Shown piece by piece: positions 7,960 through 58,016 of a stretch of DNA of 64,000 bases. The stretch comes from Candidatus Pacearchaeota archaeon. Lineage in GTDB: Archaea > Nanobdellota > Nanobdellia > Pacearchaeales > UBA284. The position numbers and the translations under genes are program-made. The stretch's first letter is position 1, and every line of letters starts with the position of its first letter. Location: NCBI GenBank assembly GCA_038886195.1, contig JAVZYK010000001.1, positions 163,456-227,455 on the forward strand, in the 5' to 3' direction. The notes beneath the pieces were generated by a model. It worked only from the letters and a program-made list of their open reading frames with translations. It did not search any database and was not told the DNA's origin.

Positions 7960-8893
7960 AATGGAATTCAAAGAGATTAAGCACATTAAAATTGTAAATG
8001 GAATAAAAGTTTCTGAACTTGTGAATAGAATGAAAAATGTTGGATTTGGTGCTAAAAATTTAGCAGAAGCTTCAAATATTCTTGAAACAGCAATCAGAGA
8101 TAAAGAATGTAAATTATTTTTTGGAATGGCCGGCGCTCTTGTGCCTGGAGGAATGAGAGAGATAGTGATTGATATGTTAAGAAAAGAATTTGTTGATGTT
8201 TTTGTTACAACGGGGGCAAATTTAACTCACGATTTAATTGAAGCTCTTGGATTTAAACATTATCAAGGATCAGCCAATGTTGATGATGTTGAATTAAATA
8301 AAAAAGGCATTGACAGAATATATAACGTTTTTATGAAAAATCAAGTTTATGAACATCTAGAAAAATTTTTTACTAAAAATTTTGATGAATTATCGAAAAC
8401 AACTTCACCAAGAGAATTTTTATGGAAACTTGGAGAGTTAGTTCATAAAAAAAGCATTTTAAAAATTTGTTACGAAAGAAAAATTCCCATCTTTTGTCCA
8501 GCATTAACAGATTCTGGAATTGGTTTAATGGTTTGGGGCCAACTTATTAGAAAAAGGAAAATAGAGTTGGATTTTTTTAAAGATCTGGCCGAAATTATAG
8601 AAATATCTTGGAGTGCTAAGAAGACTGCTGTTTTGTATATTGGTGGAGGAGTTCCTAAAAATTACATTCAACAAGCTTTACAGTTTACAAAACCAGCAAT
8701 TTATGGAGTTCAAATCACTACAGACAGAGCAGAACCTGGCGGTTCTAGTGGAGCTTCACTTAAAGAAGGAATTTCTTGGGGAAAGATGTCTAGAAAGGCA
8801 AAATTTGTAGATGTTTTTTGTGATGCTACTATAGCTTTACCTTTGCTTTACGCTTCGTTAATAGATAAATTAAAAATAAAAAAAGAGGGTTAG
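7922..8893 (+). CDS. dys: Deoxyhypusine synthase
   Basis: FFGMAGALVPGGMREIVIDMLRKEFVDVFVTTGANLTHDLIEAL and YIGGGVPKNY...GGSSGASLKEGISWGKM correspond to the DHS NAD/spermidine-binding motifs. The true start may be the internal Met near 7940-7943 (MMEKAIK). Confidence 0.8.
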   Translation: MIIGGFMMEKAIKMEFKEIKHIKIVNGIKVSELVNRMKNVGFGAKNLAEASNILETAIRDKECKLFFGMAGALVPGGMREIVIDMLRKEFVDVFVTTGANLTHDLIEALGFKHYQGSANVDDVELNKKGIDRIYNVFMKNQVYEHLEKFFTKNFDELSKTTSPREFLWKLGELVHKKSILKICYERKIPIFCPALTDSGIGLMVWGQLIRKRKIELDFFKDLAEIIEISWSAKKTAVLYIGGGVPKNYIQQALQFTKPAIYGVQITTDRAEPGGSSGASLKEGISWGKMSRKAKFVDVFCDATIALPLLYASLIDKLKIKKEG

Positions 8894-10816
8894 ATGAAAA
8901 AAAATATTCTTAAATTATTTATAACAATTTTAATAATTTCATTTACTTTTAATTTTGTTTCAGGACAAGAGCTTAATCAAGAATTTAATAGTTCTATAAA
9001 AAAAATAGATTTATTGATGAATATTTCCAGCACCATCTATAGTGAAGCTGAAAAAATTATAGTTAATTTAACTTTATTTCCCAGAGAAAATGAAAATTGT
9101 ATTGTTAATTTAAAAACAAAACCTGTAGCTGATATAGGAGATGAATTCATAATTTTCAACTTTAGTGAAAAAGGAAAATTAAACTATGTGGTTGAGTCTA
9201 AAATTAGTAGTGAGTTTTTATTTAAGAAAATTAATAATGTTGTTTTACCTTTTAACGTTCCTTCAGAACTAGAAATTTATACGAGAAATTCTGAATATAT
9301 TGTTATAGATTCGTATATTAAAAATAAAGCTTATCAGTTAGTGGCCCAAGATAAAGATGCTTTTGAAACTTTATACAACATTGCAGAATATGTAAGAAGA
9401 AATATGAACTATTCATTAGAATATCAAGAATTAAGAAATGCTTCATGGATTATGCAAGAAAAAAAAGGCGTTTGTAGTCATTATACAATTCTTTTTGTGT
9501 CAATGGCTAGGGCTCTGGGAATTCCTGCTAGATTCGTTTCCGGAGTTGCTTATAGCAATAAAGACAAAGCAATTAGAGAACATGCTTGGGCTGAAGTGTG
9601 GCTTAATGGAGAATGGATTCCCTTTGATGTAACGTTTGGTCAGTATGGTTGGCTAGATGCAAGTCATATTGTATTGAAAAGAAGTCTCGACGCAGGTTCA
9701 TCTTCTGTAGAATATAAATATGTGGGAGAAATAATTATAGAAAATTTAACAATAGATACAAAAATAATTAATCAAGAAGGTTTAGTAAATTTACCAATTG
9801 AGATAAAACTTTCTCCTTATGTAGATAAAGCTGGTTTTAATTCTTATGTTCCTATAGAAGTAACTTTGAAAAATCCTTACAATTATTATGTTTCTGTTCC
9901 TATTTATGTTTCTATTGCTACTGGTGTTTTTGGAGAGAGTGAAAAAATATTTTTACTAAAACCCAACTCAGAAACAAAAAGTTTTTTTATAATGAAAGTT
10001 CCTGATAGTTCTGAACTTAAAGAATGTGGTAAAGAATGTTTGGCAAGTTTTGAAGTTAAAGATAAATTTGGTAACTCCGCTATTACAAAAATTTTAATTG
10101 GAATAAATAAGCCCCGAATATCATTGCAAGAGGCTGAAAATATAATTAGACCGTATAGAAAGGAAATGATAGATTTTTATTGTAAGAGCAATAAAGAATT
10201 CTATTACGATTATGAAAACATCTCCATAGTATGTCAAGCAAAAAGTCCTAGAAATGCAAATGTAAGTATATGTAATCAAAATATTTGTAAGAATATTACA
10301 CTTAATGCTAATGAATTGCAGAATATTGAATTAGAAGTGCCAGCAAATATCGTTAGAAATAAATCCATTGATTCGATAGAGATGACTTGTATGATTTTAT
10401 GCATAATAACGAGAGAGCTAAAAGACATTATTGCTGTTTCTTGTATCGATATGAAGCTTCTCACTATGCCTGAAGCAAAAATCGCAACATTACAAAACAC
10501 AGAAGCAAATTATGGTAGTAAGGGTGATTTAAGTGCAATTATAGAATCAAACAACAATATAAATGCCGAACTAAAGATTGTAACGGAAAAATATATTGAA
10601 ACTAAAAAGATTTTTCTCAGAAAAGGAACAAATATAATTCCTCTAGAAATAAAAACTTGGAAATTAGACGTAGGTAAAAATTCAATATCTTTAACTTTAA
10701 AATATAAAGATATGAATGATAAAAATTATGAAGATAAAAAAGATTTTACATTTATCGTTAAAGACACGAATATTTTTACAAAGATTATTATTTGTTTAAT
10801 TCATTTATTTGACTAA
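8894..10816 (+). CDS. Secreted transglutaminase-like domain protein
   Basis: Signal peptide. A transglutaminase core with a Cys-His-Asp triad: KKGVCSHYTILFVSMARALGIPARFV, HAWAEVWL, PFDVTFG. It is followed by long beta-rich, Cys-containing C-terminal domains. Confidence 0.7.
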   Translation: MKKNILKLFITILIISFTFNFVSGQELNQEFNSSIKKIDLLMNISSTIYSEAEKIIVNLTLFPRENENCIVNLKTKPVADIGDEFIIFNFSEKGKLNYVVESKISSEFLFKKINNVVLPFNVPSELEIYTRNSEYIVIDSYIKNKAYQLVAQDKDAFETLYNIAEYVRRNMNYSLEYQELRNASWIMQEKKGVCSHYTILFVSMARALGIPARFVSGVAYSNKDKAIREHAWAEVWLNGEWIPFDVTFGQYGWLDASHIVLKRSLDAGSSSVEYKYVGEIIIENLTIDTKIINQEGLVNLPIEIKLSPYVDKAGFNSYVPIEVTLKNPYNYYVSVPIYVSIATGVFGESEKIFLLKPNSETKSFFIMKVPDSSELKECGKECLASFEVKDKFGNSAITKILIGINKPRISLQEAENIIRPYRKEMIDFYCKSNKEFYYDYENISIVCQAKSPRNANVSICNQNICKNITLNANELQNIELEVPANIVRNKSIDSIEMTCMILCIITRELKDIIAVSCIDMKLLTMPEAKIATLQNTEANYGSKGDLSAIIESNNNINAELKIVTEKYIETKKIFLRKGTNIIPLEIKTWKLDVGKNSISLTLKYKDMNDKNYEDKKDFTFIVKDTNIFTKIIICLIHLFD

Positions 10817-17692: not shown

Positions 17693-17798
17693 TGCGCCAG
17701 CCGGGATTCGAACCCGGGTAACAACCTCTCTCTATTGGGGATAATAAGGGGTATCCCCTTATTTGGGAGGGTTGTGTCTTGCCACTGGACTACTGGCG
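17693..17798 (-). tRNA. tRNA-Gly(CCC) carrying an anticodon-loop intron of about 35 nt
   Basis: Minus-strand read: GCGCCAG-TA-GTCCAGTGGCAAGAC-A-CAACC-CTCCCA[intron AATAAGGGG...AGAGAG]A-GGTTG-TTAC-CCGGGTTCGAATCCCGG-CTGGCGC-A. The acceptor and T arms pair perfectly, with discriminator A73. The intron lies at the canonical 37/38 site. Confidence 0.75.
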
Positions 17799-17868
17799 CG
17801 CAAATTACTATATATTCTTTAATAAACAAATCTTTATAAATTTTGGTCGTAGTTTAATAAAGTAAAAA

Positions 17869-25720: not shown

Positions 25721-25939
25721 ATGGAATCAAAAATAGTTGTTTTGGGTTTGTTTATAACAATGATTATTTTGTTGGCGATTGTCTCTGGAGCAGGTTGCGG
25801 CAAAACGAACACAGAGGTCGAAGCTCAAGAACTTGAATCAACTTTTGGGGAATTAGAAGACCTTGATAACGAAATAAACAATTTGAATATTGATGAATTG
25901 AACGAAAGTGAGCTCGAAGAACTTGAAGAGTTGTTTTAA
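25721..25939 (+). CDS. Small secreted acidic protein with a lipobox-like Cys (…IVSGAGC)
   Basis: 72 aa. A hydrophobic h-region is followed by SGAGCGK, then an acidic tail. Confidence 0.35.
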   Translation: MESKIVVLGLFITMIILLAIVSGAGCGKTNTEVEAQELESTFGELEDLDNEINNLNIDELNESELEELEELF

Positions 25940-45934: not shown

Positions 45935-46408
45935 ATGCCATTCAAACTGGATATAGGCGATCCTAAATCAAAACGTACGGTTCACTTAGAGACTAATAGC
46001 GACGCATTTATTGGCAAAAAGATCGGGGAAAAAATTAGCGGCTCTGTGATTAAAGAAATTCCTGATTTTAAAGATTATGAGTTTATTATTACTGGCGCTA
46101 CTGATAAAGCCGGATTTCCTGCTCTAAGCATTGTGGAAGGAACAGGAAGGAAAAGAGTTTTGTTAAAAAGAGGCCCTGGAATGAGAACAAAAAGACCGAA
46201 AGGATTAAGATTGAGAAAATTAATTAGAGGAAATATTATCGCCGAAGATATAGCACAAATCAACTTGAAAGTTTCAAAGCACGGCGCAAAAGGCTTTGAT
46301 GAAATTTTTGGTAAGAAAGAAAAAGCTGAAGCTAAAGAAGAAAGCAAAGAAATCGAAAAGCCAACGGAAGAAAGGAAAGAAGAGAAGGTTGAGGAAAAAA
46401 AGGAATAA
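45935..46408 (+). CDS. rps6e: 30S ribosomal protein S6e
   Basis: GDPKSKRT...YEFIITGATDKAGFP...RKRVLLKRGPG...LRLRKLIRGN matches S6e. Acidic/K-rich tail. Confidence 0.85.
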   Translation: MPFKLDIGDPKSKRTVHLETNSDAFIGKKIGEKISGSVIKEIPDFKDYEFIITGATDKAGFPALSIVEGTGRKRVLLKRGPGMRTKRPKGLRLRKLIRGNIIAEDIAQINLKVSKHGAKGFDEIFGKKEKAEAKEESKEIEKPTEERKEEKVEEKKE

Positions 46409-48151: not shown

Positions 48152-48592
48152 ATGTCAGAAAATTTAGAAGAAAAAATTGATGAAAGAAAACATGGAATAA
48201 AATGGCAAACAAAAGAAGAATGGCAACGATATGGCTTAGAACATGGTTATGATAAAAGAAATCCTTCGAGTTTAGTAAAAAGCGAGAATAAAGAAGAGAG
48301 AAGTTGGATAAGTAAAGGCAAGCGGGAAGGTTGGTATAAAGAGTTTAAGTTTGAAAGAAAACATGGAATAAAATGGCAAACAAAAGAAGAATGGCAACGA
48401 TATGGCTTAGAACATGGTTATGATAAAAGAAATCTTTCGAGTTTAGTAAAAAGCGAGAATAAAGAAGAGAGAAGTTGGATAAATAAAGGCATGCAGGAAG
48501 GTTGGTATAAAGAGTTTAAGTTTGAAAGAAAACGTGAAAGAAATAAAGATGCTCATTTAATTGAAATTCTTAAAATATATGTTAAGAAATAA
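48152..48592 (+). CDS. Hypothetical protein built from two 57-aa tandem repeats
   Basis: KHGIKWQTKEEWQRYGLEHGYDKRN.SSLVKSENKEERSWI.KG..EGWYKEFKFERK occurs twice. Confidence 0.45.
   Translation: MSENLEEKIDERKHGIKWQTKEEWQRYGLEHGYDKRNPSSLVKSENKEERSWISKGKREGWYKEFKFERKHGIKWQTKEEWQRYGLEHGYDKRNLSSLVKSENKEERSWINKGMQEGWYKEFKFERKRERNKDAHLIEILKIYVKK
48182..48523 (+). repeat. 171-bp in-frame tandem duplication, two copies about 97.7% identical
   Basis: Copy 1 is 48182..48352 and copy 2 is 48353..48523. I count four nucleotide differences between the copies. Confidence 0.85.
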
Positions 48593-48780: not shown

Positions 48781-50019
48781 ATGGTTAATATTGAAATTAC
48801 AAAACAAGTCACAAAGCAACCTGTTTTGAATATAGGCATAGTTGGCCATATAGATCACGGCAAAACTACGCTACTTTATCAACTTACAGGAGTTTGGGCA
48901 GATAAGCACAGCGAGGAACTGAAAAGAGGAATTACAATTAAATTAGGTTATGCTGACGTAATTATTAGAAAATGTGAGAAATGTGAAAAATTTACAATAA
49001 AAAAAGAATGCGAGTGTGGCGGCAAAACGAAAGAAATTAGATATGTAAGTTTCATCGACGCTCCGGGACATGAAATGCTAATGGCAACTATGTTGGGAGG
49101 AGCCGCAATAATTGATGCCGCATTACTTGTTATTGCTGCCAACGAGCCATTTCCACAGCCCCAGACAAAAGAACATTTGCTTGCTCTGGAAGCCAAAGGA
49201 ATTAAACAAATTATTATTGTTCAAAACAAACTAGATTTAGTAACAAAAGAGCAAGCCTTGAAACAATATGAAGAAATAAAGAAATTTATTAAAGGCACTA
49301 TTGCAGAGAATGCTGTTATTGTGCCAGTATGTGCTCAGCAAGGAATTAATATTGATGCTTTACTTGAGGCAATAACTGAATTGGAAATTCCTGCAAGAGA
49401 CATTGAATCAAAACCTTTATTTTTAATTGCTCGTTCATTTGATGTTAATTTGCCTGGAACGAATGTTGAAAAACTTGTTGGAGGAATTCTTGGTGGAGTT
49501 CTTAAAAAAGGAAAACTTAAAGTCGGAGATATTATTGAAATAAAGCCTGGACAGGCAATAAAAAAACATGATAAAACAGAATATAAAACAATAGTAACAA
49601 AAATTTTAGGATTAAGAACCGGACAATTTTCTTTAGAAGAAGCTTTTCCTTCCGGTTCTTTAGCGATTCAAACTTCCCTTGATCCTTTTTTAACAAAATC
49701 AGATGCTTTGGCTGGATGTGTTGCTGGATTAAAAGAAACTTTACCTGAAATTACATATAATGTTAAATTGAAAACTCATATATTTAAAGAGATTGTTGGA
49801 GCTAAGGAAGAAATAAAAATAGAACCATTAAAAGCAGGAGAGTATCTTATGTTAAGTGCTAATACAACAATAACTTTAGGAATCGTAACAAAAATTAAAG
49901 ACGATGAAATTGAGTTGAATTTGAAAATTCCAATAGTTCCTTTCAAAGGCGATAGAGTTGGTATTGCAAGAAACTATCAAGGACATTGGCGCCTTATAGG
50001 TTGGGGTGAATTATTGTAA
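48781..50019 (+). CDS. eif2g: Translation initiation factor aIF2 gamma subunit
   Basis: IGIVGHIDHGKTTLLYQLTG...KRGITIKLGYA, a zinc-ribbon insert CEKCEKF...CECGG, DAPGHE, NKLD. 412 aa. Confidence 0.9.
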   Translation: MVNIEITKQVTKQPVLNIGIVGHIDHGKTTLLYQLTGVWADKHSEELKRGITIKLGYADVIIRKCEKCEKFTIKKECECGGKTKEIRYVSFIDAPGHEMLMATMLGGAAIIDAALLVIAANEPFPQPQTKEHLLALEAKGIKQIIIVQNKLDLVTKEQALKQYEEIKKFIKGTIAENAVIVPVCAQQGINIDALLEAITELEIPARDIESKPLFLIARSFDVNLPGTNVEKLVGGILGGVLKKGKLKVGDIIEIKPGQAIKKHDKTEYKTIVTKILGLRTGQFSLEEAFPSGSLAIQTSLDPFLTKSDALAGCVAGLKETLPEITYNVKLKTHIFKEIVGAKEEIKIEPLKAGEYLMLSANTTITLGIVTKIKDDEIELNLKIPIVPFKGDRVGIARNYQGHWRLIGWGELL

Positions 50020-50088: not shown

Positions 50089-50478
50089 ATGTCAAGATAT
50101 GGGTGCGGAATTTGTGGCAAAATAGCAACACATATTGCAATAATTTACTATCCTTTTATAAAAGACATGTATGTGTCAACTGACTATTTGATTTGCTCTG
50201 ACAAAAATTGTCAACAAGCAATTAGCAGAGAACTTACTGAAGGCTCAAGAGACAAAAATGTTCAGATTTATCCTTTGAATTTTGATTCCTTAAAACTAAT
50301 TCCAGATCAATATCGAGAAGAAAGAGAAAAATTAAAGAAGATTATTTTACAGAGTAATTTGGCTCGCGGGATAGAGAAAAAAGCATTAGAAAACTTGAAA
50401 CAAACAAAACAAGACAAACCCACTGACTTAAAGCTAATCCAAGGAAATTTATTTCATATTCTCGAAGAAAATCATTAA
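50089..50478 (+). CDS. Hypothetical Cys-containing protein
   Basis: 129-aa ORF with CGIC...C..C. Its 3' end overlaps the convergent lgt-like gene by 137 nt, so the ORF may be shorter or spurious. Confidence 0.25.
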   Translation: MSRYGCGICGKIATHIAIIYYPFIKDMYVSTDYLICSDKNCQQAISRELTEGSRDKNVQIYPLNFDSLKLIPDQYREEREKLKKIILQSNLARGIEKKALENLKQTKQDKPTDLKLIQGNLFHILEENH

Positions 50479-51136
50479 AAAAACGAAAGAAAGAATAAAA
50501 CAGAAGGAAAAATAAAAACATCGAACTTCTTTTTTCTAGAAGTTTTTTGAATCTCGTTTCGTAGCCTTGTTCTTTTATCTGTTTAAATCTTAAAAGAATA
50601 AAAAATAATAATAGAGCGTAAAAAGATTCATAGAGTTGAGTTGGATGTCTTGCAATGTCGTTTGGAGTCTGGATTGCCCAAGGCAAAGAGCTTTGAATGC
50701 CATAATCATCCCAATTCAAAAAACAACCTACTCTTGTTATTGCAATCGCGAGCAATAGATAAGGAGCGACAATGTCAAGAATTTGGCTAAAAGTTATGTC
50801 TTTCTGTTTTCTTGTGTAGAGCCATACAAATAACAAACTAAGAAAAGCGCCATAACTTGTTATGCCTCCTCGCCATGTCATGAAAATTTCTAAAGGTTTT
50901 TGCCAGAAATATGAAAAATGTTCAAAAACATAAAATAGACGAGGGCCTACAGTTGCGCCAATCAAAATTAATAAAGCCAAATTGCAAATGTGCTTATCTT
51001 GAATTTTTTGTTTTTTGGCTTCGCGCCAAGTTAGTAATAGAGCAGTAATAAACCCAACAACAAATATAAAACCCCATGTAAAAACTTTAAAGTTTCCTAT
51101 TTGAAATAAAACATGTAAAGGTTCGAATTGAATCAT
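50342..51136 (-). CDS. lgt: Prolipoprotein diacylglyceryl transferase (Lgt) homologue
   Basis: 7 TM helices. GPRLFYVFEH, WRGGITSYGAFLS (Lgt WxGGLxxHGG-like) and RVGCFLNWDDYG (Lgt RIGNFxNxE-like). 264 aa, a typical Lgt length. Confidence 0.65.
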   Translation of the reverse strand: MIQFEPLHVLFQIGNFKVFTWGFIFVVGFITALLLTWREAKKQKIQDKHICNLALLILIGATVGPRLFYVFEHFSYFWQKPLEIFMTWRGGITSYGAFLSLLFVWLYTRKQKDITFSQILDIVAPYLLLAIAITRVGCFLNWDDYGIQSSLPWAIQTPNDIARHPTQLYESFYALLLFFILLRFKQIKEQGYETRFKKLLEKRSSMFLFFLLFYSFFRFFNDFLREYEINFLGLALSQWVCLVLFVSSFLMLFSLSREPNYSVK

Positions 51137-51195
51137 AAATTATAAAATTGGAAGCCATATAAAAATTTATCTTATTTATTTTTGCTTTTTCTTTT

Positions 51196-51570: not shown

Positions 51571-51927
51571 ATGAAAAACATATTCAATATAAAAAATTTT
51601 AGAAAAATTTTGGAAGAAATTATAGATGACTACACAATATTATATAAAAAAGGACCTTTCATATTGAAAGAAAAAAAACTTAAAACAAAAAATCACAAAT
51701 ATCGTACAGATAAAGGTTACATTGACGAAGAAAAGGGAATTATAGTGATTAATTATCTGCTTTCTAAAGAAGAAAGAGCAATAACCTTAAATCATGAGCT
51801 AATTCATGGTAAATTCCCAAATTTAAGTGAAGATAAAGTAGAAAACTTGGCATTAAAATTATTTAATAAATATGGTATAGGTTATGATTTTTATAAACCA
51901 AGAATAAATCAAAAAAAGAAAAGATGA
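51571..51927 (+). CDS. Small HExxH-motif protein (SprT/WLM-like minimal metallopeptidase?)
   Basis: ITLNHELIHGKFP in a 118-aa basic protein. Weak. Confidence 0.3.
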   Translation: MKNIFNIKNFRKILEEIIDDYTILYKKGPFILKEKKLKTKNHKYRTDKGYIDEEKGIIVINYLLSKEERAITLNHELIHGKFPNLSEDKVENLALKLFNKYGIGYDFYKPRINQKKKR

Positions 51928-53195
51928 AAATGACAAAAGAAAGAAAAGATAAAAAAATATTGAAGAGTGTTTATAAAAACATTAGACAGTTGCAAATTGA
52001 AAATAATCAAAGTTATTGTAATAATTTTTTTGAATTTACAAATAATTTATATCCTTGGGCCAAAAAGTTAGAAGATATCAATCAAAACCCAAGTCCTTTG
52101 CTTGCTTTTTGTATCGGAATTGATACGAGAGAATCTAACTATCTTAAACAAATTGGAATTGAAAACAATAAACAAATTTTGGATATAGTTTTAGTTAATG
52201 AATTTTTAAATTATATTCTAAAAAATACCAATCTTGATGAAGAGGAATATAAGTATCAAAATCTTGATGAATGTTTGAATTATTTTTTAAATCAAAAAAA
52301 TCCATTAAAAAAAGAAAAACGTAAAGGATCTTTTTTAAAAAAGATTTTTAAAAAAAATGAAAAAGATACGAATGAAGAAACTTTAGGAAAAGCCTTAGAA
52401 GAAAAATTTGAATTAAACAAAGAAAAATTATGTGACTACATAAATAACTTTACAAATAATCTTTACACTTCTTTTATTGAAATTCTAAAAAAAATGAATG
52501 GAAAACTTAATGAATTAAATCTTTTAGAAAATTATAAAGAAAGTAAGGAAAAAATAGATAATCTTAAAAAAATTGGAATTGAAAAGAAAATATATATTAA
52601 AGAAAAAAATGAAGAAAAACTTTTGAGCGACAAAGAAATTAAAGATATTGCTATAAATTATGCTTTAAAAGAAATAGATTTTATTAAAGACAACATTTCT
52701 TTAGTGAATAATTATGAATTCTATAAATTCTTTTTTCAAGACGCTGTTCAAGATCATTATTCTTTTTTAAAAGAATTCTTACTAAGCAATATTGAAAATG
52801 ATAATGAAATTGAAATGATTAATAAATTGGATGAAATCGTTGAAAAAAAGAAAGAAATTTTTTCTGAAAATTTATCGGAATTACAAGATGAACTTCTTGA
52901 AAGCGCTCAGGAGAAGGCGCAGAGTGGAAATTTAAAATACAAGGAAGATTTATTTAATTTTATAAATCTTTCAATAAACTATAGTCAAATTTTAGAAGAG
53001 GATAAAGAAGAAATAAAAATATTATATAATATTTATAATCCAGATTTACATGTCAAGATGAATGAAAAAAATAAAGAAGAGACATTGCCTCTTTATAAAT
53101 TCTATAAAAATTTATCAGAAACAAGTTTAATTAAGAATATCCTTAATATAGAATTAAGTTATATAAAAGCGAAGAATCATGCGAAAAATTTATAA
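51924..53195 (+). CDS. Hypothetical N/K/E-rich protein
   Basis: 423-aa low-complexity ORF. Its start overlaps the upstream stop, so the two look like an operon. Confidence 0.35.
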   Translation: MKMTKERKDKKILKSVYKNIRQLQIENNQSYCNNFFEFTNNLYPWAKKLEDINQNPSPLLAFCIGIDTRESNYLKQIGIENNKQILDIVLVNEFLNYILKNTNLDEEEYKYQNLDECLNYFLNQKNPLKKEKRKGSFLKKIFKKNEKDTNEETLGKALEEKFELNKEKLCDYINNFTNNLYTSFIEILKKMNGKLNELNLLENYKESKEKIDNLKKIGIEKKIYIKEKNEEKLLSDKEIKDIAINYALKEIDFIKDNISLVNNYEFYKFFFQDAVQDHYSFLKEFLLSNIENDNEIEMINKLDEIVEKKKEIFSENLSELQDELLESAQEKAQSGNLKYKEDLFNFINLSINYSQILEEDKEEIKILYNIYNPDLHVKMNEKNKEETLPLYKFYKNLSETSLIKNILNIELSYIKAKNHAKNL

Positions 53196-53342: not shown

Positions 53343-54803
<1,461 letters not shown>

Positions 54804-54885
54804 ATAAATTTTTTTATGGCTGAAGAAGTCCTGAATGTTTTGCCCTTACAATAATTTTAAAAATACTACGGCTCTTAAAAAATAA

Positions 54886-54958
54886 GGGCCTGTAGTTCAG
54901 CGGTAGAATGCCTCCCTTGCACGGAGGAGGTCCCGGGTTCGATTCCCGGCGGGTCCAT
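54886..54958 (+). tRNA. tRNA-Ala(TGC) in the 16S-23S spacer
   Basis: GGGCCTG-TA-GTTCAGCGGTAGAAT-G-CCTCC-CTTGCAC-GGAGG-AGGTC-CCGGGTTCGATTCCCGG-CGGGTCC-A. A G3:U70 alanine identity pair is present. Confidence 0.9.
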
Positions 54959-55044
54959 AATATTCAAAAAACGTTATATTTTAATAAAAATGAAGTAGGT
55001 AAAAGCAATTTTACCTACGGAGTTTGATGCTTAATTTTTAAGCA

Positions 55045-57960
55045 AATGAGACGTTGTATGAGGAATAGTTTAGCTTCCCTAAAAGCTGCTAGACGGATGA
55101 CTTGGCTTAGACTGCGATGAAGGACGTGGCAAGCTGCGATAAGTCCGAGGGAGCTGCACGCAAGCCTTGATCTCGGAATCTCCGAATGCGAAACGTTATT
55201 CCTGAAGAAGGAATATCTCTCTTTTGAGAGAGCTGACGCCGGGAATTGAAACATCTTAGTACCGGCAGGAAAAGAAAACAAAAGTGATTCCCTGAGTAGC
55301 AGCGAGCGAAAAGGGAATAAGGCAAACCGAATTTTCTATCGAAAGATAGAAAAGATGTGGAGTCGGGCAGGAGTACAGCTAAACTGTCGAAGTCGAAGTT
55401 TCCTGGAAAGGAACGCCATAGAGAGTGATAGCCTCGTAGACTAAGACAGCATGCTGATTTCCTGCTTTCAAGAGTAGCGTATCCCGGTTAGGATGCGTGA
55501 AGATGGCTCTACTAAGAGCTAACTTTAAATATGAGTCTAAGTCCGATAGCGCACTAGTACCGCGAGGGAATGTTGAAAAGCACCTCTAGCGAGGAGTGAA
55601 AAGACCTGAAATCTAGCAGCTATAGTTAGTTACGGCTCTCTACGGAGAGTTGTAACGTACGTTTTGGAAAACGGGCCAGGGAGTTAAGGTAAGTGGCGAG
55701 GTTAAGTTGCTTCTGCAACGTAGCCGTAGCGAAAGCGAAGCCGCGCATCGAAAGAGAGGCGGCGTGTTCTAACAAGCATTAGTCACTTGCCTTAGACCTG
55801 AAACCAAGCGATCTACTCGTGAGCAGGATGAAGCTTCCCTAACGGGGAGTGGAGGTCCGAACAAGTGCTACGGGCAAGTGCTTTGATGACTCACGAGTAG
55901 GGGTGAAAAGCCTATCTAGCTTGGCGATGGCTGGTTCCTGCTGAAATATACTTTCGTATAGTCTCTTGTTAGTTGGCCAACGCGGTAGAGTACGGATTGG
56001 GCATGCAGGCATCTTTTGATGTCGGTGTCCTTTTCAACTCCGAACGTGTTGGCAACGCAACAAGGGAAACAGGTGTGCGGGGTAAGCTTGTACACCGAGA
56101 CCGGAACAACGGAGACTAAAGTTAAGGTCCCAAAATGCTGACTAAGTGCATCGAAAGGAGTCCTGATTCTGAGACAGTGGGGAGGTAGGCTTAGAGGCAG
56201 CCATCCTTTAAAGAAAGCGTAACAGCTCACCCATCGAGAATCAGGGCACTGAAAATTGACGGGGCTAAGTCAGCTACCGAGACTTTAGTGTTTTTCCTTC
56301 GGGAAAAACAGGTAAGCAGGCGTGCTGTTCGGGTAGAAGCTTCTTCGTAAGAAGGAGTGGACCGAATAGCAATGAGAATCCTGGCGTTAGTAGGATCTTA
56401 CTTGTGTGAGAACCACAAGGGTCGTAAGAGCTAGGGTTCCTCGACAATGTCGATCAGTCGAGGGTTAGCCGATCCTAACTGCTACCTTAACTGAGTAGCG
56501 GGAAAGGGAAGCCTGTTAATATTCAGGCGCTGCTTGGCAATGTTGAAATTCTCGGTGACGTTTTGGGATAGGCAGAGTGTCTCCGAAAGGACATCTATCG
56601 CGAGAAAGTTGTGGATCGTAATGAAGAGAAGCAACTGAATCGCGATAGCGAAAGTCTGTTGATTCCTAGAACCCGTGAAAAGCCGAGAATGGAGTTGTCA
56701 AGCAATCGTACCTAGAACTTGCACTTGTGCTCTTGCTGAGAAGGTAAAGACCTGCAAGCTTAAAGCTAGTAAGGGAACTCGGCAAATTGGCCTCGTATCT
56801 TCGGTAGAAGAGGTGCCTATGTTTGTGCCTTTGATTCGTAAGAATTGGAGGTGCAAGCGTAGGTTGCAATAACAAGGACCGCCCGACTGTTTATCAAAAA
56901 CGTAGCCAAGTGCTAAGCCGAAAGGCTTCGTACACTTGGTGAGACCTGCCCAGTCGCGGTGTTTGAAAGCCCTTTCCAAGGGGCCTAAGACCCGTGAAAC
57001 GGCGGGCCTAACTGTGAGGCTCTTAAGGTAGCGTAATACCTTGTCGTCTGAATGGCGACTTGCATGAATGGTTTAACGAGGTGGTCACTGTCCCTACTAG
57101 CGAGCTTCTGAACTCACCCTCCTGGTGCAAAGGCCAGGGACATCTAGTGGGAAGCGAAGACCTTGTAGACCTTTACTGCAACTTGTCGTTGAATCTTGTA
57201 GTAAAATACATAGCGTAGCTAGGAGAGATGAAGCGAGGCTTCGGCGTAGCGGATCGCCAATGTAACACTAGCTATTTTTTTACAAGATTCTAACTCGAAA
57301 GAGGACAGCGGCAGGCGGGCAGTTTGGCTGGGGCGGCACCCTCCCGAAAAGATATCGGGAGGGCCCAAAGGTGAGCTCAACATAGTTGGAAACTATGTGT
57401 AGAGCGCAGGGGCAAAAGCTCGCCTGACTGTGGCTCGCATAGAGAGAGCTGCAGATACGAAAGTAGGGCCCAGCGAACTCTTGAGGCCTTTTAGTGGGGC
57501 CCAAGAATGACAGAAAAGGTACCTCAAGGATAACAGGCTCGTCGCGCCCGATAGTCCACATTGACGGCGCGGTTTGGTACATCGCCGTCGGCTCTTCCTA
57601 TCCTGGCTGTGCATAAGCAGCCAAGGGTGCCGGGGTTCACGCATTAAAAGGGATCGTTAGCTGGGTTAAGAACGTCGCGAGACAGTTTGTTTGATATCTA
57701 CTAGATGTGTTGTTGCCTGAATGGAACGAAGCTCTAGTACGAGAGGAACGAGCTTCGGGAGCCTCTGGTTTAGCGGTTGTCCTTACAGGGCAGGCCGCGC
57801 AGCTACGCTCTGTGCTGATAAGAGCTGAACGCATCTAAGCTCGAAGCAGCCCGTAAAAATAGGCAACTAAGGCCGTTCTAGAAGAGAACGTTGATAGAGT
57901 TGGGGTGTACGCAAGAAGCTTCGGCGACTTGCTCAGCCCGCAACTACTAAAAGCCTCAAA
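55045..57960 (+). rRNA. rrl: 23S ribosomal RNA (ends approximate, ±20 nt)
   Basis: The 5' region, ...GGATGACTTGGCTTAGACTGCGATGAAGGACGTGGCAAGCTGCGATAAGTC, matches the conserved 23S start. GTP-ase centre and sarcin-ricin-like blocks are seen (AGTACGAGAGGAAC at about 57735). No 5S follows. Confidence 0.85.
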
Positions 57961-58016
57961 AAACTAAACTATTCCTTGTACAACGTCGATATTAAAAAGA
58001 AACAATGAAAAAGAAT

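Follow-up and report, generated by a model that had tools for sequence, protein, structure and literature searches.

A gene of the prolipoprotein diacylglyceryl transferase (Lgt) family at a conserved locus of Pacearchaeota-type archaea

Do any archaea carry prolipoprotein diacylglyceryl transferase (Lgt), the bacterial-type enzyme of lipoprotein lipidation? The presence of an Lgt homologue in archaea was denied in Nat Commun 2025 (PMC12462473) and in mBio 2026, where the enzyme is described as "absent from archaea" (PMC13251419). The question is raised by a stretch of 64,000 nucleotides of Candidatus Pacearchaeota archaeon (assembly GCA_038886195.1, contig JAVZYK010000001.1, positions 163,456 to 227,455; the whole stretch analysed is hereafter called the window). 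A preliminary description, made from the sequence alone, had pointed there to an Lgt-like open reading frame (ORF) of 264 amino acids (aa) with seven transmembrane (TM) helices, and had remarked that bacterial-type Lgt is not the canonical archaeal route. The remark agrees with the literature, in which the described archaeal route of lipoprotein lipidation is that of AliA/AliB (PMC12462473); the premise that Lgt is absent was what motivated the search for these two proteins. We report here that the ORF is a family member in an unexpected domain of life, with a clade-specific signature at the donor-lipid site.

The annotation as such is not novel, because these proteins already bear the name "prolipoprotein diacylglyceryl transferase" in the pipeline of NCBI; a literature search for Lgt in DPANN archaea or Pacearchaeota found no discussion of it. 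With a bona fide Lgt in a large, syntenic archaeal clade under purifying selection, the distribution published for the family has to be corrected. Gene transfer from bacteria to DPANN archaea is common, which tempers the weight of the finding.

Family membership and fold

The gene and its two signature blocks are placed as follows (residues are those of the encoded protein, the window Lgt).

50342-51136, minus strand: lgt, 264 aa, ATG start codon, seven-helix membrane protein of the Lgt family, assigned by sequence to the N146C subtype
50699-50734, minus strand: Lgt signature motif RVGCFLNWDDYG, residues 135-146
50846-50875, minus strand: WRGGITSYGA block, residues 88-97, at the start of TM3, counterpart of W97-GG...H103-GG of Escherichia coli Lgt

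The searches with Lgt hidden Markov models (HMMs) that the preliminary description had recommended gave strong matches to both models named there. The window Lgt matches Pfam family PF01790 (LGT) with E=7.6e-56 and 189.6 bits (cut-off, 24.9 bits) over profile positions 2-239 of 240, and scores 126.7 bits against the TIGR00544 equivalog, above its curated cut-off of 118.9 bits. In a sequence search of the PDB it matches E. coli Lgt (5azb; E=2.7e-18). An AlphaFold2 model built from a 92-sequence alignment (predicted local distance difference test, pLDDT, 95.3; predicted template modelling score, pTM, 0.90) shows arm-1 as a beta hairpin at the N-terminus, together with seven long helices and an arm-2 that is short. 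When compared with the PDB by Foldseek, this model has E. coli Lgt (5AZB) as its sole significant match (E=4.6e-11, TM-scores 0.79/0.74). Between TM4 and TM5, where the E. coli enzyme has its periplasmic head domain, the window Lgt has only ~24 residues vs. ~44 in E. coli Lgt.

The predicted ORF, with both of the signature blocks quoted for it, is thus confirmed as a bona fide member of the Lgt family, which has the family profile and a 5AZB-like fold of seven TM helices, the head domain being shortened. By its sequence it is assigned to the N146C subtype, a natural variant of Lgt that has already been described.

Conserved core and donor-lipid site

Homologues were aligned to E. coli Lgt, the reference sequence of which agrees with the residues in the 5azb alignment. 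The equivalent positions (window Lgt = E. coli Lgt) are:

W21 = Y26, Y95 = H103, R135 = R143, C138 = N146, D143 = E151
G146 = G154, Y214 = Y235, R218 = R239, D222 = E243, R225 = R246

All the family-wide invariants are present in the window Lgt (G91, G96, R135, G137, G146, R218 and R225). In E. coli numbering, which is used hereafter for homologues, 108-109 of the 109 aligned archaeal-clade sequences, like the window Lgt, retain G99, G104, R143, G145, G154, R239 and R246, and the same proportion (108-109/109) holds for the H196-P-x-Q-x-Y201 block. Across 221 aligned homologues, the R, G, C and final G of the signature motif are invariant. In the 120 best homologues, whether from archaea or from bacteria, position N146 is always Cys and position E151 is either Cys or Asp.

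The preliminary description had proposed that the equivalents of H103, Y235 and the glycine of the signature motif should align. Two of them do so and are conserved, namely the Y235 equivalent (Y214) and the G154 equivalent (G146), but the H103 equivalent is Tyr95. Tyrosine at this position does not argue against Lgt membership, because Tyr, Trp or Phe at H103 is normal among Firmicutes, Actinobacteria and others (PMC13251419). The combination of N146C with E151C/D is also a natural Lgt variant, found e.g. in Lgt of Leptospira interrogans, which gives partial rescue of E. coli (PMC13251419). Positions that E. coli Lgt needs but that vary within the family (Y26, H103 and N146, as well as E151 and E243) do not settle membership.

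In comparison with E. coli Lgt (5AZB/5AZC), the window Lgt belongs to the same Pfam and TIGRFAM families, has the same seven-TM fold with the arm-1 hairpin and arm-2 (TM-score 0.79), and retains R143, G145, G154, Y235, R239, R246 and H196-P-x-Q-x-Y201. It differs in overall sequence (24% identity in the structural alignment), in six substitutions (Y26W, F102S, H103Y, N146C, E151D and E243D), in the smaller head domain (~24 residues instead of ~44), in having no P269 kink residue, and in its archaeal host.

Three of these substitutions, Y26W, F102S and E243D, form an archaeal signature at the contacts with the donor lipid. The triple W26/S102/D243 occurs in 81 of the 109 archaeal-clade sequences vs. 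4 of the 111 others, and the one of these four that was checked (P0185) is archaeal as well. In the E. coli structure, the hydroxyl of Y26 bonds the sn-2 ester oxygen of phosphatidylglycerol (PG), and F102 lines the pocket for the donor glycerol (PMC4728403). Because Y26 and F102 contact the donor lipid in E. coli, the archaeal proteins have a donor-lipid site unlike that of the model enzyme, and the changes may reflect a different lipid.

The pair W26/D243 was also considered as an archaeal-specific state and rejected, since a bacterial group resembling the candidate phyla radiation (CPR), composed of P0065 and its relatives, has both residues. The triple that includes S102 is nearly confined to archaea, the CPR-like group being without S102. 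The Lgt proteins of this group (L087, positions 8001-8750; P0065, P0079, P0091, P0093, P0099 and P0106) have W at Y26 and D at both E151 and E243, and are encoded near genes for MraZ, RsmH, a penicillin-binding protein, a Mur ligase, L10/L12 and DnaB. The residues W26/D151/D243 common to CPR-like and archaeal Lgts hint at an exchange between CPR and DPANN, or at convergence in lipid-scavenging symbionts.

Archaeal location and synteny of lgt

The following features of the window anchor the lgt locus.

53343-57970, plus strand: archaeal 16S - tRNA-Ala - 23S operon, 2.2 kb from lgt
48781-50019, plus strand: aIF2-gamma gene, convergent neighbour of lgt and synteny anchor
45935-46408, plus strand: ribosomal protein S6e gene, synteny anchor

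The window is archaeal DNA, as judged from its small-subunit (SSU; 53343-54803) and large-subunit (LSU; 55067-57970) rRNA, and it contains the genes for aIF5B, S6e and aIF2-gamma (orthologues of the latter match PF09173, eIF2_C) at a uniformly low G+C content. The placement of the gene in an archaeal genome, on which the preliminary description relied, holds: lgt is flanked by the archaeal rRNA operon and by the aIF2-gamma gene, towards which it is convergent across a gap of 323 nt.

The same order, with S6e followed by aIF2-gamma and the convergent lgt, was found in seven archaeal genomes (the window, L001, L003, L005, L006, L007 and L094), of which L001 is a single NCBI record of 710,724 bp (CP061211.1). 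In four of them (the window, L001, L005 and L094) the rRNA operon lies on the far side of lgt. Across the syntenic loci, identity to the window is 47-77% for Lgt and 86-92% for 16S rRNA. The GC content of lgt (0.32) and that of its third codon positions (GC3; 0.25) are like those of the neighbouring genes. The ratio of nonsynonymous to synonymous substitution rates (dN/dS) amounts to 0.26 in the comparison with a 91%-identical homologue and to 0.15 in that with L001; lgt is under purifying selection. A protein deposited at NCBI under "Candidatus Pacearchaeota archaeon" equals the window Lgt in all but one residue (V27I).

Distribution and phylogeny

The close family of the window Lgt is composed of ~59 clusters (at 90% identity), which are 39-100% identical to it and, where named, come from Pacearchaeota. 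Below this family, identity is at most 37% and the named matches are bacterial, e.g. from Omnitrophota and Deltaproteobacteria; among the matches listed, the nearest bacterial relatives (30-37% identity) are from Omnitrophota, Bacillota and Planctomycetia. A second archaeal group comprises ~52 clusters around a Pacearchaeota-labelled protein (L063). The archaeal context of this group is seen on an 831-kb contig (L091), with genes for aEF1A, S10 and diphthamide synthase near lgt, and on a 362-kb contig (L093), with genes for proteasome alpha, SBDS, the exosome and Rpb6. Two more divergent Lgts (P0057 and P0185) are archaeal too. The two subclades amount to at least ~110 clusters at 90% identity, and the count of archaeal species is likewise a lower bound.

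In trees built by neighbour joining (NJ) only, with 100 bootstraps, a core clade of 58 sequences was monophyletic in 92/100 replicates. When the data set was enlarged, clade definitions based on rank were non-monophyletic, in part because some of the proteins classed as "other" (e.g. P0185) are archaeal.

Pathway context and candidate substrates

Among 76 loci of bacterial relatives (L008-L084), 42 have an ORF for LspA (signal peptidase II) directly upstream of lgt on the same strand. The N146C subtype is therefore an enzyme of the lipoprotein pathway in bacteria. The lspA and lgt frames often overlap stop-to-stop, and the operon is widespread, being found in Omnitrophota, Bacillota, Planctomycetia and others. 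The bacterial N146C-type enzymes (of Leptospira interrogans, Omnitrophota, Bacillota and Planctomycetia) resemble the window Lgt in R-x-G-C, in C/D at E151 and in Y/F/W at H103; they differ from it in that lspA precedes 42 of the 76 bacterial genes but no archaeal one in the DNA examined. No lipid-biosynthesis gene was found among 30 window proteins scanned with Pfam.

Genes for Peptidase_M48 proteins (HtpX/Ste24-type membrane metalloproteases) were noticed at two archaeal lgt loci. In L093 (10795-11655, plus strand) such a gene has the orientation of lgt and begins 21 nt behind it, and in L085 (8111-9007, minus strand) another is found next to a LemA gene at a distance of ~1 kb from lgt; the surroundings of lgt in the window showed no M48 gene. 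It is conceivable that an M48 peptidase is the processing partner in lineages in which lspA was not detected.

The preliminary description had named one small secreted protein with a Cys directly after a hydrophobic segment as a potential substrate:

25721-25939, plus strand: 72-aa candidate substrate, signal peptide followed by the lipobox VSGAG and C26

The remark about this protein is correct. The N-terminus of the protein (MESKIVVLGLFITMIILLAIVSGAG followed by CGKT) fits a PROSITE-type lipobox rule, and VSGAGC is invariant in the three known homologues (42-58% identity), in which the hydrophobic core varies. An exact copy of the protein is present at NCBI under "Candidatus Pacearchaeota archaeon". 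In total, six plausible lipobox precursors were found in ~179 kb of archaeal DNA (one in the window and five in the flanks of other archaeal lgt genes); in L007, one of them is the divergent neighbour of lgt. According to SignalP-based prediction, DPANN archaea commonly have lipoproteins (PMC12462473).

Function and origin of the archaeal Lgt

The explanation that we consider probable is that the gene encodes a functional N146C-type Lgt, anciently acquired from bacteria by an ancestor of Pacearchaeota/Woesearchaeota-type DPANN archaea, which lipidates lipobox proteins. The ancestor would have gained lgt long ago, and the gene would then have been passed on vertically at its fixed locus by the aIF2-gamma gene and the rRNA operon; both the direction (from bacteria to archaea) and the age of the transfer are presumed. 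By analogy with E. coli Lgt, the archaeal protein may act as a transferase whose cavity, with R135 and R218 in its lining, takes up a PG-type glycerophospholipid. The (di)radylglyceryl group would then be passed on to the Cys thiol that follows the signal peptide of lipobox proteins such as the 72-aa protein, and the lipidated proteins would thereby be anchored to the cell membrane. The donor would be either an archaeal ether lipid or a scavenged lipid.

Several observations weigh against this explanation. Three residues that are essential in E. coli are replaced in the window Lgt (Y26W, H103Y and N146C); E. coli Lgt carrying Y26A/F/Q or H103Y is inactive (PMC4728403), and MSMEG_5408 of Mycobacterium smegmatis, which combines Y26H with N146C, is presumed to have low activity (PMC13251419). 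In agreement with the preliminary description, which had seen no LspA candidate in the window, phmmer with LspA sequences of E. coli and Bacillus subtilis, a motif regular expression and an HMM made from the 42 ORFs upstream of bacterial lgt detected no lspA, whether in the window or across ~185 kb of archaeal DNA (best match at chance level, E=0.04), a negative result that covers the window and the archaeal lgt flanks, not whole genomes. The LspA queries were valid, as they matched the 42 bacterial ORFs with E down to 1e-29. With regard to the lipobox precursors, a residue-swap control placed Cys at the top per unit frequency, but on 3-4 vs. 0-5 hits it has no power, and no significance is claimed for lipobox enrichment because the sample is too small. 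The NJ trees give no resolution of the bacterial sister group, of the wider grouping or of the number of transfers. Finally, the donor of bacterial Lgt is the diacyl PG built on sn-glycerol-3-phosphate, and archaeal lipids have the opposite stereochemistry and ether bonds.

The strongest competing explanation, which we nevertheless regard as unlikely, is that the Lgt fold is retained with a different or lost function, as a low-activity relic, with another acceptor, or in lipid remodelling or the handling of scavenged lipids. The replacement of Y26, H103 and N146 would suit it, as would the presumed weak activity of the Y26H/N146C paralogue of M. smegmatis, the linkage to lspA that is seen in bacteria and not in archaeal loci, the reduction of the head domain to ~24 residues, and a DedA/VTT gene overlapping the start of lgt in one archaeal locus. 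It has to be set against the catalytic Arg pair and all the family invariants, which are kept under purifying selection in more than 100 archaeal clusters. Moreover, the N146C/H103Y type occurs in bacterial lspA-lgt operons, the N146C-type enzyme of Leptospira partly complements E. coli, and lipobox precursors are present, one of them with an invariant lipobox. MSMEG_5408 and the window Lgt have in common that both deviate from E. coli Lgt at Y26 and N146. The mycobacterial protein is a second, presumably weakly active copy beside a canonical Lgt; purifying selection acts on the archaeal gene, and the archaeal stretches examined (up to ~20 kb per genome, and 64 kb in the case of the window) contained no further PF01790 gene.

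A different history of the gene, to which we assign a still smaller probability, would have it descend from archaeal ancestors, as a survivor related to the Lgt-like progenitor proposed for AliA (arCOG02177), or would have it passed from DPANN archaea to bacteria. AliA has been proposed to be derived from Lgt (PMC12462473), the divergence between the archaeal clades is deep (down to 34-47% identity) and synteny persists over ~14% SSU divergence, and the bacterial sister group is not resolved in the NJ trees, all of which could accommodate an archaeal origin. An acquisition from bacteria is favoured by the derived N146C/E151(C/D) state, common to archaea and only a subset of bacteria, and by the NJ trees rooted on E. 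coli Lgt, in which the archaeal Lgts nest inside this N146C subset. In addition, among the matches listed, all the archaeal sequences checked are labelled Pacearchaeota or Woesearchaeota or lie in a DPANN-like context, and RefSeq archaea were without a PF01790 match in February 2021 (PMC13251419).

The relation to AliA deserves a separate comment. AliA/AliB of Haloferax volcanii (arCOG02177/arCOG02178) share with the system proposed here the presumed thioether lipidation of a lipobox Cys in secreted archaeal proteins. Two Arg residues have been reported in a comparable pocket of AliA, which may derive from Lgt, and the HHpred probability of arCOG02177 against PF01790 is 29% (PMC12462473). The window ORF is probably not an AliA, because it is a strong PF01790 member and is set apart by this published HHpred figure. 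An archaeal Lgt bears on the proposed evolution of AliA from Lgt.

Bacterial contamination, a mis-assembly or a mis-binned fragment in an archaeal bin would account for a family that is otherwise bacterial, with Omnitrophota, Bacillota and Planctomycetia as the best non-archaeal matches listed, but is given practically no credence and is excluded, together with a recent transfer, because the synteny recurs in seven independent archaeal assemblies (including the 710-kb single-record genome) and GC and GC3 equal those of the neighbours, and is further opposed by the aIF2-gamma gene at 323 nt and the archaeal rRNA operon at 2.2 kb on one contiguous sequence and by a nearest bacterial protein only ~36% identical.

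Two further readings concern the donor lipid. In DPANN cluster 2, which includes Pacearchaeota, complete lipid synthesis is commonly absent and lipids of a partner are relied upon (PMC7414124); because of this dependence, the donor may be a scavenged lipid. We put forward, tentatively and as a possibility on the doubtful side, that either the lipid divide has been crossed by an enzyme whose pocket is re-tuned to archaetidylglycerol, or the membranes of these archaea hold scavenged bacterial diacyl phosphatidylglycerol. If the former is true, Y26W, F102S and E243D would suit an ether lipid based on sn-glycerol-1-phosphate; if the latter, bacterial hosts would be indicated for these DPANN archaea. 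In both cases, surface proteins would be lipidated in a way unlike the AliA/AliB route, possibly with a protease other than LspA. The clade offers a natural experiment on these alternatives, namely an Lgt able to work with archaeal lipids or lipid-auxotrophic symbionts that carry bacterial-type lipids.

Other features of the lgt loci and of the window

A possible promoter of lgt was read directly from the sequence:

51157-51165, minus strand: TATA-like TTTTTATAT, inside the 59-nt A+T-rich spacer (51137-51195) upstream of lgt

The centre of TTTTTATAT lies ~25 nt before the lgt ATG, which fits a candidate archaeal TATA promoter that would give a leaderless lgt mRNA.

Between aIF2-gamma and lgt, a 129-aa Cys-rich ORF (CGICGK...C..C; 50089-50478, plus strand) runs convergently into the 3' end of lgt, with an overlap of 137 nt. 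This ORF has no Pfam match, is conserved at 91% in L090 and only weakly in L001 (28% identity, E=9e-6). On the other side of lgt, towards the rRNA operon, a small ORF that weakly matches IrrE/Peptidase_M78 (51571-51927, plus strand; E=1.2e-4) overlaps by 4 nt an ORF encoding an Asn/Lys-rich protein of 423 aa (51924-53195, plus strand), and the pair is also present in L089. The DedA/VTT-domain gene mentioned above, a member of a membrane lipid-transporter family, is located at 9381-10004 (plus strand) of L094; its overlap with the start of lgt is 4 nt and looks operon-like, in this one locus only.

Elsewhere in the window, a 146-aa protein without a Pfam match (48152-48592, plus strand) is composed of two near-identical repeats of ~60 aa (KHGIKWQTKEEWQRYGLEHGYDKRN.SSLVKSENKEERSWI.KG..EGWYKEFKFERK). 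A 107-nt region (17693-17799, minus strand) was recognized by Rfam as a tRNA (52 bits) and not called by ARAGORN; it is probably an intron-containing archaeal tRNA. A large secreted protein with a transglutaminase core and a type-I signal peptide is encoded in the window (8894-10816, plus strand) and, near lgt, in L094 (15641-17515, minus strand).

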